A stretch of DNA of 37,904 bases from a virus (taxonomy: Duplodnaviria; Caudoviricetes). Position numbers and translations under genes: made by a program. The stretch is taken from positions 1 to 37,904 of IMG/VR virus record IMGVR_UViG_3300032301_000607, one strand, 5' to 3'. Shown here in pieces: positions 7,566 to 23,434 of this stretch. Numbering within the stretch: the stretch's first letter is position 1; each line of letters begins with the position of its first letter. The notes beneath the pieces are model-generated. The model ran no database searches. It saw only the letters and a program-made list of their open reading frames with translations, and was not told the DNA's origin.

Positions 7566-7859
7566 ATGAATGAACCCTTCACATCCTCAGAGGCAAAGGC
7601 CAAGGGCATTTTATCCGACCGCTACCCCGGCAAGGAGATGTCGAAACTCTATGCAGAGAACCGCAACCAAGCGACCATCGATATGCTCCGAGATGCCGTG
7701 TTCACTTTGATTACTAATGAGATTCCCACTTGCACCATTGCCCAAGTTCTTCGCAAAACCCATGGGGCGATTCAGTACCACCTACGCTGTCTTGAGGGTG
7801 ATGGAAAACTAAAGAGACGGAACAAGCGATGTCATTGGCGGGAGGCAGTTGAAGCGTGA
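7566..7859 (+). CDS. HTH DNA-binding protein
   Basis: TCTIAQVLRKTHGAIQYHLRCL. Confidence 0.6.
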   Translation: MNEPFTSSEAKAKGILSDRYPGKEMSKLYAENRNQATIDMLRDAVFTLITNEIPTCTIAQVLRKTHGAIQYHLRCLEGDGKLKRRNKRCHWREAVEA

Positions 7860-8586
7860 ATGAAAACCCAACCCACCTCGACTTGTTCAGCGGTATCGGA
7901 GGATTCGCTCTTGCCGCTAGATGGGCTGGATTTGAAACCGTTGGGTTCTGCGACAACGAACCCTACGCCCAAGCCGTCCTCAAAAAGCATTGGCCTAATG
8001 TCCCAATCCACGGAGACATCAAGGCACTCGATGGAACGGCATATCGAGGAGTCACTCTTCTCACAGGAGGATTTCCCTGCCAGCCGTTCAGTTGTGCCGG
8101 GAAGCAACGAGGCAAGGACGATGACCGCTATCTCTGGCGCAAATGCTCCGAGTCATACAAGAGGCAAGGCCAACTTGGGTCGTTGGTGAGAATGTTGCTG
8201 GAATCATCAACTTGGGACTCGAAAAAGCGTGCTCTGATTTGGAAGGGATTGGCTATGCAGTCCAACCGCTTGTTATTCCGGCTTGTGCCATTGGCGCACA
8301 GCACAGGCGAGACCGAGTTTGGATTATTGCCAACACCGACGGCATCAGACAAAGTTTATGGCAGGAAACCATCGACAAAAAGAAAAAACAACGCGCCCAA
8401 AACATCATTGAGAGATGTTCTTTCAGAGAAATTCTCGATAGATGGGAAGGGTGGAAGTCCACACCCTACATTTGTAGAAGCGATGATGGGATACCCCATA
8501 GGTCACACCGACTTAAAGGACTGGGCAACGCCATCGTCCCGCAAGTCGCATACCAAATCATCAAAGGGATAAGAGAGCTTCTATGA
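7856..8586 (+). CDS. C5-cytosine DNA methyltransferase, two-polypeptide overlapping-frame type, with a 1-nt frameshift near 8138
   Basis: Motif I LDLFSGIGG and IV GGFPCQPFS before 8138; VI ENV, VIII HRRDRVW and X LGNAIVP in ORF 8143-8586; motif IX-like PTFVEAMMGYP in the overlapping frame. Confidence 0.85.
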
Positions 8587-9974: not shown

Positions 9975-10460
9975 ATGAGTGAAAAACAGATCGGAATGGA
10001 ACTACAAAAAACGGTGAGGCTTTTAGACAAAGCCAAAGAAACAGCCATTACACAGATGGGGCAGGCCATCAGCCTAGCGGCCGATGCAGGGGACATCATA
10101 ATGTCGGCAGAGCTTGAGGGGCTAAACCTCCCAGAAATTTTAGGGGTGGGGGGGGTATCCGAGGAACAGGCTCGTCGCTTCAAAAGGGTGGCTAAGGCCA
10201 GACCCAGCCTCCACTCCCCAAGCCCCCAATCCCTCAAGCAGTTAGCCCTCTGGGTAGGTCTAATGCCCGACCCCATCGAGACCTCCACCCCCCGCCCCCA
10301 GAGGTCTTGGCATCACTACCTAGTGGCCTGTCGCCAATGGCTCACCCGCAAGAGCATACAAGACTGGTCGTCAGTACAGAAGGCCGACTTCGTATCCGAA
10401 GCTGAACCAATCGTAAGGGCGTTCCTCGAAGCAGGCGGGAAACTACCCCCAAATGGGTAA
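9975..10460 (+). CDS. Hypothetical protein
   Basis: ATG 9975 after AAGGA; last ORF before the large spacer. Confidence 0.6.
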   Translation: MSEKQIGMELQKTVRLLDKAKETAITQMGQAISLAADAGDIIMSAELEGLNLPEILGVGGVSEEQARRFKRVAKARPSLHSPSPQSLKQLALWVGLMPDPIETSTPRPQRSWHHYLVACRQWLTRKSIQDWSSVQKADFVSEAEPIVRAFLEAGGKLPPNG

Positions 10461-10585
10461 AAAAAGACAAAAAAAACACAAAAAAAAGACAAAAAAAACA
10501 CAAAAAAAAGCACACGAAAAAGACGCAAACACTCTTAAAATCAACGCAATGCAAACAAAAAAAAGGAAAAAAAATTGAAAAAAAA
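10459..10585. repeat. Phased A8-tract arrays
   Basis: (A8 plus GAC or CAC) 11-bp units at 10459-10509 (first tract A7); three more A8 tracts at 10557, 10567 and 10578. Confidence 0.9.
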
Positions 10586-10769
10586 TTGGGAAGAAAATTG
10601 TGAGGTCGCCGTCAAAAATTTAAAACCACCCCCCCCCTTTTTAGGAGACTTCTACCCAGCAAAAACACTAAAAGACAGGTTCCCACCGCGGCTATTTTGT
10701 GAGAGTTGACCCAAGAACCTTTATGTCAAACACTTGCACCACAAATCTTTTGTAACTTTTTTAACAACT

Positions 10770-11279
10770 ATGAAATACCCCTGCTTGCTTACCAAAAAAA
10801 TCAGCGAAATTTCTTCGGCAAAATATAACCCAAGAAAAATTACAGATGAGGCGATGGGTCGATTGACCAAGAGCCTAGCGGAGTTCGGAAACATCCAGCC
10901 GATCACTTGGAACGCTCGGACTGGGAATGTGGTTGGAGGCCACCAGAGGCTCAAGGTCTATAAGGCGATGGGCAAAACCGAGGTGGATGTGTGGGCGGTC
11001 GATCTGGACGAGCAAAAGGAGAAGGCGGCCAACATAGCCCTCAACAAGTTAAGCGGAGAGTTCGATATGCCGATGCTCAAAGACATCCTAGAAGAAATCG
11101 ATACTGGCGATCTGGATATGGAAATTACCGGGTTCGGGATGGATGAAATTGCTGTTATGATGGAGGCAACTAATCCAGACCCAAATTTCTTACCAGACGC
11201 AGAGGTGAATCAAGGTAAACTAGATGAAAAGTCGCCAGTTACTTGTCCTAATTGCAATAATGAATTTATCCCAAGCTAA
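10770..11279 (+). CDS. ParB/Srx-like domain protein with a C-terminal CxxC knuckle
   Basis: YNPRKI...SLAEFG..QPITWN...VVGGHQRLK...ALNKLSGEFD; TCPNCNNEF. Confidence 0.85.
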   Translation: MKYPCLLTKKISEISSAKYNPRKITDEAMGRLTKSLAEFGNIQPITWNARTGNVVGGHQRLKVYKAMGKTEVDVWAVDLDEQKEKAANIALNKLSGEFDMPMLKDILEEIDTGDLDMEITGFGMDEIAVMMEATNPDPNFLPDAEVNQGKLDEKSPVTCPNCNNEFIPS

Positions 11280-11952
11280 TAATCTGAAAATTGATTGGGC
11301 TACTCACGAAGCGGCAAAATATGCCTGCGAGAACTGGCACTATTCAAAAAGCATTCCTAGTGGCAAGATGAATAGATTTGGAGTATGGGAAGACGGAAAC
11401 TTTAAGGGCGTTGTTTTATATGGAAGACCAGCATTCCCATCGATAGGAAAACCATATAATCTTACTCAATTTGAAATTGTAGAGCTAGTCAGAGTCGCGC
11501 TAAAGGAACACAAAAATCCAGTATCAAAGATTATAAGCGTAAGTCTTAAAATTCTAAAAAGGCATAATCCAAAGTTAAGGTTAGTCGTATCCTTTGCAGA
11601 TAAAGGACAGAATCATTATGGTGGAATATATCAGGCATCAAACTGGTTATATGTGGGGGAGGGGGGTGCGGCGGTGCAATATAAACTAGACGGAGAGACT
11701 GTACATCAAAGAACGCTAGTTCATAAATTTGGAATTAAATTTGCGAGTCATAGCAGAGTCACAAAATATAACCCTCAAAGAAAATATAAGTATTTAATGC
11801 CCCTTGACGATTCAATAAAGAAACAACTAAAATCCCTACACAAACCATACCCGAAATGCGTATCAAGTGCTGATAGCGGCACGCTTGGCTTCCAGCCAAG
11901 AGGGGGAGGTGCAAATCCTACCGATACGCTCCATTTTCAAAATGCGAAATGA
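11260..11952 (+). CDS. mom: Mom-like GNAT-fold DNA modification protein
   Basis: HYS, GVVLYG, ELVRVAL, VVSFAD..QNH.GGIYQASNW.Y.G and KYKY motifs; between the ParB-like gene and terminase. Confidence 0.8.
   Translation: MNLSQANNLKIDWATHEAAKYACENWHYSKSIPSGKMNRFGVWEDGNFKGVVLYGRPAFPSIGKPYNLTQFEIVELVRVALKEHKNPVSKIISVSLKILKRHNPKLRLVVSFADKGQNHYGGIYQASNWLYVGEGGAAVQYKLDGETVHQRTLVHKFGIKFASHSRVTKYNPQRKYKYLMPLDDSIKKQLKSLHKPYPKCVSSADSGTLGFQPRGGGANPTDTLHFQNAK
11858..11933 (+). tRNA. Atypical tRNA-Gly(TCC)-like element inside the mom ORF
   Basis: 76 nt: acceptor GCGTATC/GATACGC, discriminator T, encoded CCA; D stem GTGC/GCAC; anticodon stem CTTGG/CCAAG with loop CT-TCC-AG; T arm GGAGG-TGCAAAT-CCT(A)CC. 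Confidence 0.85.
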
Positions 11953-12548
11953 TTACCCAAAAAGAACTCCGAGAAAAGTGGGGCATCGATGCGGGGCAGT
12001 TGTCTCGAATGGTAAAGCGGGGTATGCCCCTCACTTCCGAATCAGACGCTCAACGATGGAGGCTCGCAAACCAGAAGCGAGTGAGCAAATCACAGATAGC
12101 CCGGACACCATCCCCGACCTCATCAGAGCCATTAAAAGACTCGGATGCCGAGTCATACAAATCGAAAACCTCGCTTGGCAGATTGAATCGAGCGAAGCAA
12201 GCCGAGGTAGTTGCTTACTCATTGGTAGCCACGGCGGCAAACAATCAAAACCCAGTCGCTATGAGGGCGGCGGTGCAAGGATGGGGCGAAGCAAAAAAGC
12301 GAGTCGCAGAAGCAGAAATGGAACACGCTCGGTGGGAAGAAGTGAGCCGAGTCACAGTTCGGATGGGGGAAGTGCAAGAATGGATAACGAAGTGGCACGG
12401 AGCAATCAGATCGCTTCTGGATGCCCTTCCTTCGAGCCTAGCGGCCAGAGCAAACCCATCAGACCCAGAATGTGCAAAGCAAGCCATCCAAGACGGAATC
12501 AATCAAATCTTCGTTACCATCCAGAAAGCAGAGGGGGCGTTTAAGTGA
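11949..12548 (+). CDS. terS: Terminase small subunit (Nu1-like)
   Basis: N-terminal wHTH TQKELREKWGIDAGQLSRMVKRGMP, then a coiled coil and an LDALPSSLA motif; upstream of terL. Confidence 0.75.
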   Translation: MITQKELREKWGIDAGQLSRMVKRGMPLTSESDAQRWRLANQKRVSKSQIARTPSPTSSEPLKDSDAESYKSKTSLGRLNRAKQAEVVAYSLVATAANNQNPVAMRAAVQGWGEAKKRVAEAEMEHARWEEVSRVTVRMGEVQEWITKWHGAIRSLLDALPSSLAARANPSDPECAKQAIQDGINQIFVTIQKAEGAFK

Positions 12549-20944: not shown

Positions 20945-22597
20945 GTGAAATATCCTATTTCAGTCTACCTAATAGCAGGAAATGAAGAAGAATACATTGG
21001 CCGATGCTTGGAAAGTTTCAAGCCCATTTCAGCGGAGCTTGTTGTCTGCATCGCTAGGGGGAATCTTGTCCCAGACAAAACAGAAGAAATTGCCAAAGGT
21101 CTGGGTGCGAAAATCGTTCACTACCAGAATCAAAGAACTGATTGGCCTCATATAGACGATTTTGCAACTGCTAGGAACACGGCTCTTGGTGCGTGTTCAA
21201 ACGAATGGTGTTTATGGGTAGATGCTGACGATGTGATGTCCGAGGATGGGGCGAAGGTTGTCGAAGAAGCTATTGACCTTGCCGTTGAGAAAGACGCTCA
21301 CCTCGTGGCGTTAAAGTACAATGTGGACAACGCCGGACTCATTCCCCTCCGAGAAGAAATCTCAAAGAGGGGAACTTGCCATTGGAAGAACCGAGTCCAC
21401 GAGATGCTTATCTCTAAAGAGCCAAATAAGACGATTGGCCTAGATAAGATTTTCAGAATCCATAAGCCTCACGGATATAAGGCCAAAAGTGCTGAAAGGA
21501 ATTTCAACATCCTAGCCGACACGCTTTCCACCGCCCCCAACGCCCTTTACTACCAAGCTCAAGAATACTTCTTATCGAATCAGATGGACAAGTGTATTGA
21601 TTCTAGTCTGCGAGCCTTAACCTTTTCAGAGCTAGAGGATACGCTTCGATATGATGTGCTTTGCAACTTAGGAAGAATTGTTTCAGAAAATGATAGGCTT
21701 ACTTACCTTGGGCAAGCCGTAGCGTTGCAACCAGACCGTAGAGAGGCTTATTTTTATATAGCGAATCATTGGTCTGGAAAGGGCAACTGGATTAAGGCTT
21801 ATGGAGCAGTTCGTTCTTGTATGACCTTGCATCGCCCCAAAGCCCACTACTGGAATCTTGTGGAGGCAATCTACAACTGGCAAGCGATGGACTTTTACGA
21901 GACGGCTTCGGTGTGTGTGGGAGAAGCTGGTGAGGCTGAAAAGATTAAGAAGATGCGACCAGCCCCCAAGATCAGCATTATTCACGCCACAAAGGGGAGG
22001 CCGCAGATCGCTTGGCAAAGACGCTGGCAATGGCTTTCCCTAGCCCAAAATCCACTAGAGGTTGAATGGTTGTTTATGGTTGATCACGATGAAGCCGTTG
22101 ATTACACCCCCCACCAAGCCATTAGGTGCAACCCCGGAGGCATCGTCAACGCTTGGAACGCAGGGGCAAAAATGGCCAAGGGAGAGATTATTATTCAAAT
22201 GAGCGATGATTGGACACCCCCTCGCCATTGGGATGCCCTAATTTCGACCGCTATGGGGGATACAGCGGGGGAGAAAGTGCTGGCAGTATCAGATGGGCTA
22301 CGAACCGACAAACTCCTCTGTATGGCTATTATGACGCAATCTAGGCTCAAGAAGCAGGGGGAGATGTTCTGTCCAGAATACCAAGTTAGCGATGGCATAT
22401 ATTCAGACAACGAGGTGACTGACCGAGCTTATGAGGATGGGGTGATAGTTGAGGCTAGACACATCCAATTCAAACACGAGAATCCGATGTTCACCGGAGG
22501 CAACCCCGATGACCTACTTAAAAACCACAATAAACCCGAACACTACCAAAAGGGGAAGGCAATCTATGAAAAACGCAAAGCAAATAATTGGATGTAG
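20945..22597 (+). CDS. Glycosyltransferase with GT2, TPR and second GT-A domains
   Basis: NEEEYIGRCL, DDFATARN, WVDADD and RVHE; TPR helices (QPDRREAY); second domain ISIIHAT.GRP, AWN.GA, MSDDW, YSDNE, FKHE. Confidence 0.85.
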   Translation: MKYPISVYLIAGNEEEYIGRCLESFKPISAELVVCIARGNLVPDKTEEIAKGLGAKIVHYQNQRTDWPHIDDFATARNTALGACSNEWCLWVDADDVMSEDGAKVVEEAIDLAVEKDAHLVALKYNVDNAGLIPLREEISKRGTCHWKNRVHEMLISKEPNKTIGLDKIFRIHKPHGYKAKSAERNFNILADTLSTAPNALYYQAQEYFLSNQMDKCIDSSLRALTFSELEDTLRYDVLCNLGRIVSENDRLTYLGQAVALQPDRREAYFYIANHWSGKGNWIKAYGAVRSCMTLHRPKAHYWNLVEAIYNWQAMDFYETASVCVGEAGEAEKIKKMRPAPKISIIHATKGRPQIAWQRRWQWLSLAQNPLEVEWLFMVDHDEAVDYTPHQAIRCNPGGIVNAWNAGAKMAKGEIIIQMSDDWTPPRHWDALISTAMGDTAGEKVLAVSDGLRTDKLLCMAIMTQSRLKKQGEMFCPEYQVSDGIYSDNEVTDRAYEDGVIVEARHIQFKHENPMFTGGNPDDLLKNHNKPEHYQKGKAIYEKRKANNWM

Positions 22598-22814
22598 GAA
22601 AGCAAAAAAGGGGGAGGATACGAGGGGGCTTGGTATAATTAAATTCGGGAAGTCTCGCCCCTGCAAAACCAAGTATGTAAAGGTTGATATCACCTATGAT
22701 AATAAGGCCAAGAAGGAACTTTTTGAGGCGGGGATGTTGGCATTGAAACACGACCCAGAAGCCGTGATTGAATATGTCATTAAAAAGGCACTTTGCGAGT
22801 TGGCGAAAAAATGA
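22566..22814 (+). CDS. Small basic hypothetical protein
   Basis: ATG 22566; stop overlaps the next ATG. Confidence 0.5.
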   Translation: MKNAKQIIGCRKAKKGEDTRGLGIIKFGKSRPCKTKYVKVDITYDNKAKKELFEAGMLALKHDPEAVIEYVIKKALCELAKK

Positions 22815-23434
22815 ATGGATATACAAAGCTGGCTTGCGGCCATCTTTATCAAGACCTAGTGACTGGGGATATCCCGACTTACTCAAAAGAGTATTCAGAA
22901 GAACGCTATGATAAGTATGATACAACGAGGCCGATGTCGGAGTTGCGATTTGCCCTATGTAAAGAGCTTTTCAAATTTAATTCAGTTTTAGATTTTGGCT
23001 ATGGGAATGGCGACTTCCTTTCTGTTTGTGCCGGTAATGGCGTTAGGTCTTTTGGGTATGATGTCTCTGATTACCCGCTAAAAAAGCCAGTAATCAAAAC
23101 AAGCTCCCTCTTTATAGACTGCGACCTTGTAACCTTTTTTGATTCAATCGAGCATCTTGAGACAAGAAACATATCCAGTTTCTTAGCAAAACTTCACACC
23201 AATCAAATCCTAATCTCTGTCCCTTGGTTTCACGATCTAGGGGATGATTGGTTCTACCATTGGAAACATAGGAGGGAGAACGAACACTTCCATCACTTCA
23301 CCGCCGCCGGGTTGTGCGAAGTTATGGAATCGGCTGGGTTCACCCCAATTTATCACTCAAACCCAGAGGATAAGATAAGAAAATCCGATTTGTCCTTACC
23401 CAATATATTGACGATGGCTGGCGTTAGGAATTAA
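22811..23434 (+). CDS. Class I SAM-dependent methyltransferase
   Basis: VLDFGYGNGDF, GYDVS, FFDSIEH, ISVP and EHFHHF; resembles glycan-cluster methyltransferases. Confidence 0.85.
   Translation: MNGYTKLACGHLYQDLVTGDIPTYSKEYSEERYDKYDTTRPMSELRFALCKELFKFNSVLDFGYGNGDFLSVCAGNGVRSFGYDVSDYPLKKPVIKTSSLFIDCDLVTFFDSIEHLETRNISSFLAKLHTNQILISVPWFHDLGDDWFYHWKHRRENEHFHHFTAAGLCEVMESAGFTPIYHSNPEDKIRKSDLSLPNILTMAGVRN

Follow-up and report, generated by a model that had tools for sequence, protein, structure and literature searches.

Two kinds of element described before bear on the locus reported here, since a tRNA-Gly-like locus embedded in mom has been in print since 2011 and dedicated non-proteinogenic tRNA-Gly is a known kind of molecule. 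The ssrA islands of Dehalococcoides carry a 76-bp tRNA-Gly-like 'pseudo-tRNA' within the first 150 bp of a mom homolog, with the anticodon DCC in a 5-nt loop (McMurdie et al., 2011, PMC3146451), and the passages of that report covered here propose no function for it. Mu Mom, according to the sections of its description consulted, transfers glycine from Gly-tRNA-Gly to N6-dA, works with each of the three E. coli isoacceptors but not with Gly-tRNA-Ala, and presumably recognises the tRNA by its acceptor end (Silva et al., 2026, PMC13219725), in agreement, for Mu, with the donor that the initial annotation of our locus had named. The main text of that paper makes no mention of tRNA-like, overlap, embedded, pseudo or Dehalococcoides, its preprint and two supplement files hold no such remark, and our literature search, in which coverage of subscription journals was thin, turned up no publication that connects an RNA of this kind with the substrate of Mom. 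In Staphylococcus, the tRNA-Gly(UCC) species NP1-3 are donors for FmhB, FemA and FemB; in the parts of the source drawn on here, these S. aureus RNAs combine a TGC or TGT T loop with an anticodon stem of six pairs and a weakly paired T stem, evade EF-Tu and are the preferred donors of FmhB, from which EF-Tu sequesters Gly-tRNA; affinity for EF-Tu depends almost entirely on T-stem pairs one to three (PMC7826273).

The window that we analysed is a complete 37,904-nt record of a virus of the Caudoviricetes with direct terminal repeats (IMGVR_UViG_3300032301_000607), in which a single-copy tRNA-Gly-like RNA lies entirely inside the open reading frame of a Mom-family gene (Table 1). The longest mom ORF has 242 codons, with a likely start at ATG 11263 that gives a protein of 229 residues. 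Residues 21-211 match positions 2-202 of the 202-position PF25680 profile (170.4 bits against a cut-off of 27.1), and the AF2 model (pLDDT 84) has chains A and B of 8bv8 as its top Foldseek matches (E 2e-11, TM 0.61-0.65). The window protein thus shares family, fold and C-terminal PYPK with Mu Mom (PF25680, PDB 8bv8; Silva et al., 2026, PMC13219725), although the two are only 29% identical and Mu Mom ends with PYPK, lacks a tRNA-like element and works with the isoacceptors of its host, needing no private tRNA. PYPK (window codon 11854-11856) is the end point of the Pfam domain as well as of the Mu protein and of its chain in the crystal, and the RNA starts one base past that codon; it is carried by a 31-residue tail (codons 199-229) that is predicted to be disordered (pLDDT below 50 for residues 200-229) and, judged from sequence and model, appears dispensable. 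Six of the seven putative Mu active-site residues are conserved (H58, Y59, R111, S124, D149 and Y159). The position of R151, which is essential in Mu Mom in the sections seen (PMC13219725), is occupied by Gly in the window protein, with Arg found in one of 120 relatives, and neither W48 nor W181 is retained, so the activity or the donor of the window Mom may differ. Downstream, the probable terS gene begins 15 nt past the CCA of the RNA and overlaps the mom stop (ATGA).

Table 1. Features of the mom locus in the window, with the basis of each assignment
Feature	Position	Strand	Basis or detail
ParB-N domain protein	10734..11279	+	PHROG/Pfam profile match; overlaps mom start
Mom-family GNAT DNA-modification gene	11224..11952	+	PHROG 1384 (5.5e-56); Pfam PF25680; PDB 8bv8 by sequence and fold
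Sigma-70-like promoter match inside mom (candidate)	11804..11833	+	TTGACG, 18 nt, TAAAAT
tRNA-Gly(UCC)-like RNA	11858..11933	+	76 nt, encoded CCA; fold, Rfam, ARAGORN, covariation
Probable terminase small subunit (terS)	11949..12548	+	PHROG 57, weak (4e-5); followed by HNH and terL

Other parts of the window hold further features. An ORF at 7856-8572 resembles a C5-cytosine methyltransferase and would be a second DNA-modification gene; its Pfam match stops after the first 91 of the profile's 324 positions, an ORF at 8143-8586 overlaps it, and it may be split or frameshifted. Genes for a GT2 glycosyltransferase and a methyltransferase (20945-23434) lie in the virion-structure region, 3' of the major capsid gene, and an A-rich low-complexity tract with long runs of A and G (10453-10709) lies upstream of the ParB-N gene.

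The initial annotation had described a 76-nt cloverleaf with a perfect 7-bp acceptor stem, a TCC anticodon and an encoded CCA, wholly within the mom ORF, and sequence parse and fold agree on this description. The acceptor stem (11858-11864/11923-11929) pairs at 7 of 7 positions, including G1-C72, C2-G71 and G3-C70; the D stem (11867-11870/11879-11882) has four pairs and an 8-nt loop; the anticodon stem (11884-11888/11896-11900) has five pairs closing the loop CTTCCAG; the variable region is 4 nt long; and the T stem (11905-11909/11917-11922) begins with G49-C65 and G50-C64, followed by an unpaired A at 11920 and by A51-U63. The 3' end, at 11930-11933, is TCCA. The departures from elongator tRNAs that had been listed can each be found in the sequence: A8 (positions 8-9 are AA), a D loop without GG, a T loop starting TGC, the bulged T-stem A, and C32 and G38, which are able to form a sixth anticodon-stem pair. 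The minimum free energy fold is this cloverleaf (-33.3 kcal/mol, z -3.1; 1 of 200 shuffles equally stable) and persists when flanking sequence is included; the minus-strand fold of the element has no significance (z -1.39). The combination of 7-bp acceptor, bulged T stem and TCCA occurs once in the window against 0.04 times per mononucleotide shuffle (100 shuffles). The element thus shares the cloverleaf, the 7-bp acceptor and the NCCA end with canonical tRNA (RF00005), but it lacks the invariant U8, G18G19 and TTC and has a bulged T stem; with these features and an RF00005 score of 23.3 bits, below the 29-bit cut-off, it is not a canonical elongator tRNA. Recognition by ARAGORN, which had been put forward as a check, held at a threshold of 90, where the element is called tRNA-Gly(tcc), and failed at default settings, which return no tRNA in the whole window and, on 60 of the 80 homolog loci described below, only an unrelated tRNA-Met. 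A blastn search of the 76-mer against annotated phages gave no match, and ARAGORN together with a covariance-model search found no further tRNA in the complete genome.

Covariation across homologs, far beyond chance, confirms that the tRNA-Gly-like RNA is real. From 237 viral homolog loci we took the best 80 (45-95% identity); with the window added, the element is present in 81 of 81, as 58 distinct sequences; extraction was anchored at YPK with the best-pairing ends picked, which favours pairing, yet a covariance model built from 27 elements (the window and 26 others) independently recovered 80 of 80 loci. All 58 variants have 6-7 acceptor pairs, U73 and five T-stem pairs around the bulged A, and they fall into two classes: 31 are cloverleafs of 76-77 nt, and 27, measuring 69-70 nt, lack the D arm (L014:1629-1697, L017:3606-3675 and 25 others). 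In the latter a covarying 2-pair helix links the former D region to the variable region; D-armless forms of 67-68 nt also occur. For the cloverleafs, L040 and three 77-nt forms were omitted so that the alignment had no gaps; in the remaining 27, the paired share of cells is 97.8%, against 31-42% in slid-alignment controls, and compensatory changes occur at 17 of 22 pairs. The 27 D-armless forms are 99.6% paired, with compensatory changes in 14 of 19 pairs. Kinship of the sequences inflates the shuffle control, yet most anticodon-stem pairs show at least three pair types. Between the window and its 95% identical relative L001, A51-U63 is exchanged for C51-G63 by changes that are synonymous on both sides. 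Overlap with the ORF is retained in 57 of 58 variants. The tails of 120 further proteins read the RNA in three frames (63, as 55+8; 43; and 11; 3 unassigned), so the protein does not explain the conservation of the element. The check on homologs that the initial annotation had proposed thus found fold, anticodon CC, U73 and mostly CCA retained, together with covariation. A quick fallback protein tree with long branches weakly suggests that the element switched between cloverleaf and D-armless classes at least five times. Among GTDB genomes there are three mom loci, two of them with the RNA. Two differing tRNA-Gly-like elements stand in tandem, in different frames, at the end of one mom gene (L246:901-1005), and 77-nt variants (L028:1130-1206, L052 and L071) have an 8-nt anticodon loop and no encoded CCA while keeping U73.

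What these RNAs keep is glycine identity. The bacterial GlyRS determinants, given as G1-C72, C2-G71, U73, C35 and C36 in the portion of the source covered (PMC9976931), are present in the window, as had been claimed; G1-C72, C2-G71 and U73 occur in all 58 variants, as does an anticodon-loop CC, which 54 variants carry at exactly 35-36 in a 7-nt loop and the other 4 in a loop of shifted register. CCA is encoded in 53 of 58, and the five variants without it retain U73. Position 34 is free (ACC 26, TCC 25, CCC 5, GCC 2; n=58), and tRNA-Gly(ACC) is described as universally missing from cellular genomes in the passages seen (PMC8007984). What they lose are features of translation, for a TTC T loop is found in 3 of 58 and U8 in 1 of 58, the bulged T-stem A in 58 of 58 and a 32:38 pair in 56 of 58. 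A subgroup typified by Arthrobacter phage Martha pairs its T stem regularly, with no bulged base, and frequently does not encode CCA; a bulge is therefore one of several possible routes.

The likeness to S. aureus non-proteinogenic tRNA-Gly that the initial annotation had drawn stands for the TGC T loop and the sixth anticodon-stem pair, and extends, as far as the source was covered, to glycine identity, to altered EF-Tu-binding T-stem pairs with A51-U63 and to a partner that is a GNAT-fold aminoacyl transferase (PMC7826273). In contrast, NP1-3 are chromosomal and free-standing, confined to staphylococci, serve cell-wall synthesis, have weak pairs instead of a bulge and keep U8 (PMC7826273, same sections), whereas the window RNA is phage-borne, overlaps the gene of its enzyme, would serve DNA modification, and has D-armless and ACC-bearing relatives. 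The window does not carry the T-stem set A49-U65, U50-A64, A51-U63 given for the NP species in the parts consulted (PMC7826273); the resemblance is one of working, and the lineage differs.

A reverse search with a 29-nt T-arm/acceptor pattern that holds no anticodon or protein information ties the RNA to Mom from the other side. The pattern occurs in an estimated ~1,700 viral stretches; among 80 pattern loci with wide flanks, a few of which repeat the first set, 71 carry a Mom-like gene no more than 900 nt away on the same strand, and 6 of the 9 loci without Mom are cut by contig ends. Anticodon-loop CC is found in 109 of 113 distinct elements from this search, and RNA-bearing loci span at least three Mom subfamilies. 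Within the 71 loci the RNA is placed 3' in the ORF (53), across the stop (7), at the 5' end (10) or downstream (1), a varied position that fits a diffusible product. Two loci, L243 (901-929) and L226 (558-586), have the RNA with no Mom match within 900 nt; in L243 it lies between a long upstream ORF that looks glycosyltransferase-like by eye and terS. Cultured phages show the same range of placements. In Salinibacter phage B2_17 the RNA stands free directly past the mom stop and is labelled tRNA-Gly in GenBank; in Arthrobacter phage Martha (NC_041932; L083:1898-1971) an unannotated tRNA-Gly(UCC)-like gene spans the mom stop; and in Microbacterium phage Appa (L082:1966-2040, minus strand) a near-canonical tRNA-Gly(CCC) with A8, whose 31.1 bits exceed the Rfam cut-off, is convergent to mom and lies 32 nt past its stop. 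A second set of 80 loci, seeded with the Martha Mom, yielded the RNA in 72 by default search and in 5 more with filters off, L148 having been left out of the re-run.

The Dehalococcoides pseudo-tRNA, in the passages covered, is likewise a 76-nt tRNA-Gly-like fold with an anticodon of the DCC type inside a mom homolog beside a ParB-domain gene (PMC3146451), but it belongs to a genomic island and lies towards the start of mom, whereas the window RNA lies at the 3' end of mom, in a phage and before terS; 10 of the 71 pattern loci have the 5'-end placement with the same motif. Those passages report no D-armless form, covariation count or presence/absence test. As far as our searches show, the 3'-embedded form, the D-armless and ACC variants and the three-frame overlap are new, as are the loss of the RNA along with Mom where a methyltransferase takes over and the candidate promoter inside mom, both described below.

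Sister phages allow presence and absence to be compared. We retrieved 160 loci by terS (L333-L492), of which 20 were excluded for want of a terS start or for a short flank; Mom and RNA occur together in 12 loci, neither occurs in 128, and none is discordant. Across all 160 the covariance model matches exactly the 12 mom-bearing loci, and so the RNA, which the initial annotation had proposed to test for conserved structure in homologs, also co-segregates with mom. The 12 are near-identical, so the pattern may reflect a single acquisition or cassette swap. In the Mom-less sisters the place is taken by a fusion of ParB-N with an N6/N4 methyltransferase (2 checked) or by ParB-N alone, and since 128 loci have neither Mom nor RNA, the packaging genes do not need the RNA. 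Sisters with terS up to 99% alike swap three cassettes, namely ParB-N with Mom and RNA, ParB-N-methyltransferase, and ParB-N alone, and L457 has yet another ORF (282 aa) in the slot between ParB-N and terS; the arrangement suggests that ParB-N acts as a common helper of DNA-modification enzymes that stand in for one another.

The RNA is a feature of certain Mom clades and not of the whole family. Mu has no such RNA, and none scored above noise in 44 Mu-like mom loci, all near-copies, 17 of which end within ~25 nt of the stop; a match of 14 bits (E 0.4) directly past one Mu-like mom stop (L120:2022-2070) is probably noise. It is found in 0 of 14 distant cultured-phage mom loci, and among close homologs two or three are without it (phiEf11, L187, L192).

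The promoter-like site inside mom (Table 1) is a candidate for the RNA's own promoter on sequence grounds. Its -10 element ends 24 nt upstream of the RNA; the match is weak on its own, because the region holds 9 sigma-70-like sites where 3.7 are expected. Across the 58 variants, however, the best promoter score in the 75 nt upstream of the RNA averages 7.4 against 4.9 in synonymous re-codings (0 of 300 as high), on weights that are approximate and in sequences that are related, and the -10 ends 22-26 nt upstream of the RNA in 42 of 58. The excess over the synonymous null is +2.43 here, compared with -0.42 to +0.55 in 16 other mom windows. A second Mom family shows little promoter signal (14 of 25 above null), and 5'-type loci show no clear replication. 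A promoter of its own, if real, would give the RNA a short-leader precursor. Among the contigs of four RNA-seq runs none spans 11858-11933, which speaks neither for nor against transcription of the RNA.

Since the element keeps acceptor and synthetase signals, sheds translation signals and travels with mom, it is most simply Mom's donor, and we think it probable that it is a private glycine donor for the predicted Mom, charged by the host and shunned by translation; we infer charging, exclusion from EF-Tu and use from sequence and by analogy. The RNA would be transcribed, possibly from the site inside mom with a leader of ~18 nt, in which case the mom mRNA need not be sacrificed. Host tRNA-processing enzymes would trim its 5' and 3' ends, with the CCA encoded or added, and host GlyRS would glycylate it through G1-C72, C2-G71, U73, C35 and C36, elements that are all seen. 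D-armless forms may be hard substrates for bacterial GlyRS. The bulge or weak pairs at 49-65, 50-64 and 51-63 and the TGC T loop, together with loss of U8, of U33 and of the D-loop GG or the whole D arm, would then allow escape from EF-Tu and the ribosome, an effect for which S. aureus NP tRNAs are the model while the features themselves are seen. Mom would finally pass the glycine to N6-dA, where it would rearrange to N6-carbamoylmethyl-dA and protect the DNA against restriction; transfer and rearrangement are established for Mu Mom in the sections consulted (PMC13219725). The payoff would be free Gly-tRNA unsequestered by EF-Tu and a host pool left undrained for late phage protein synthesis.

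Among other readings of the element, the one to which we give most weight, though we consider it unlikely, is cis-acting control, with the tRNA mimic as a processing site or as a Mom or GlyRS binding site that feeds back on mom. It builds on the point that, without an internal promoter, processing from mom mRNA leaves a stop-less message; in one variant RNase P would cut at 11858, leaving mom mRNA without its stop and freeing the terS message. In all 58 variants the RNA starts at a fixed offset from where the YPK codon ends, 1 nt for cloverleafs and -1 nt for D-armless forms, which would suit such a switch, as would its usual place just upstream of terS and the ORF overlap in 57 of 58; yet terS is expressed without the RNA in 128 sister loci, the RNA elsewhere lies also at the mom 5' end, free downstream or on the opposite strand, and a processing signal needs neither C35/C36 nor U73. 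Cis control can in any case coexist with a donor role. We think it still less likely that the RNA is a decoy or buffer that is not Mom's substrate and that absorbs anti-tRNA defences or eases Mom's drain on Gly-tRNA (through a glyQS T-box, for example). TacT-type toxins are described, in what we have seen of the source, as reading U73 and G71 of tRNA-Gly, the S. aureus glyS T-box responds to non-proteinogenic tRNA-Gly (PMC7826273, sections covered), and the 32:38 pair is closed in 56 of 58 variants, but a generic decoy need not vanish exactly where a methyltransferase replaces Mom, and a charged mimic would be a substrate anyway, because the acceptor end of any tRNA-Gly will serve Mu Mom.

That the element is an ordinary translational tRNA-Gly, boosting glycine decoding late in infection, seems to us very unlikely: the window's UCC with C32 could decode several Gly codons, and the Appa element passes the Rfam cut-off and is annotated as tRNA-Gly(CCC), whereas this complete genome has no second tRNA, anticodon is independent of codon use (the GGT share is 0.20 in both ACC and TCC groups), and among the 58 variants 27 lack a D arm, 55 lack TTC and 26 have ACC. 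Phage att sites often copy tRNA ends, and the Dehalococcoides copies sit in integration modules in the passages seen (PMC3146451), so that the element might instead be a relic, whether an attachment site, a captured host tRNA fragment or a by-product of a conserved protein. Such an origin is the least probable of all and is largely refuted by covariation in both halves; moreover, no integrase match was found among the proteins scanned, a set that did not include every small ORF, the peptide is read in three frames and predicted to be disordered, and the 51-63 swap between L001 and the window is compensatory and synonymous on both sides.

Returning to the donor reading in its widest form, we put at slightly better than even the chance that these loci are widespread viral enzyme-plus-cosubstrate genes, in which Mom modifiers in thousands of phages would carry within their coding sequence a translation-orthogonal tRNA-Gly with its own promoter, including D-armless 68-70-nt and ACC forms, charged by host GlyRS for DNA hypermodification only, and which the R151-less Mom clade may prefer or require. 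As ARAGORN and Rfam miss it, the element is probably unannotated in the estimated ~1,700 viral contig stretches. Arthrobacter phage Martha and Salinibacter phage B2_17 are cultured phages of harmless hosts suited to direct testing, and the D-armless, ACC-bearing RNAs of glycine identity lend themselves to tests of how small a GlyRS substrate can be and of amino-acid carriers orthogonal to the ribosome. If true, the donor role would assign a function to an element noted in 2011, would explain how a phage enzyme dependent on aminoacyl-tRNA obtains it although EF-Tu sequesters almost the entire supply, and would add the modification of viral DNA to staphylococcal cell-wall synthesis as a process served by dedicated non-translational tRNAs.
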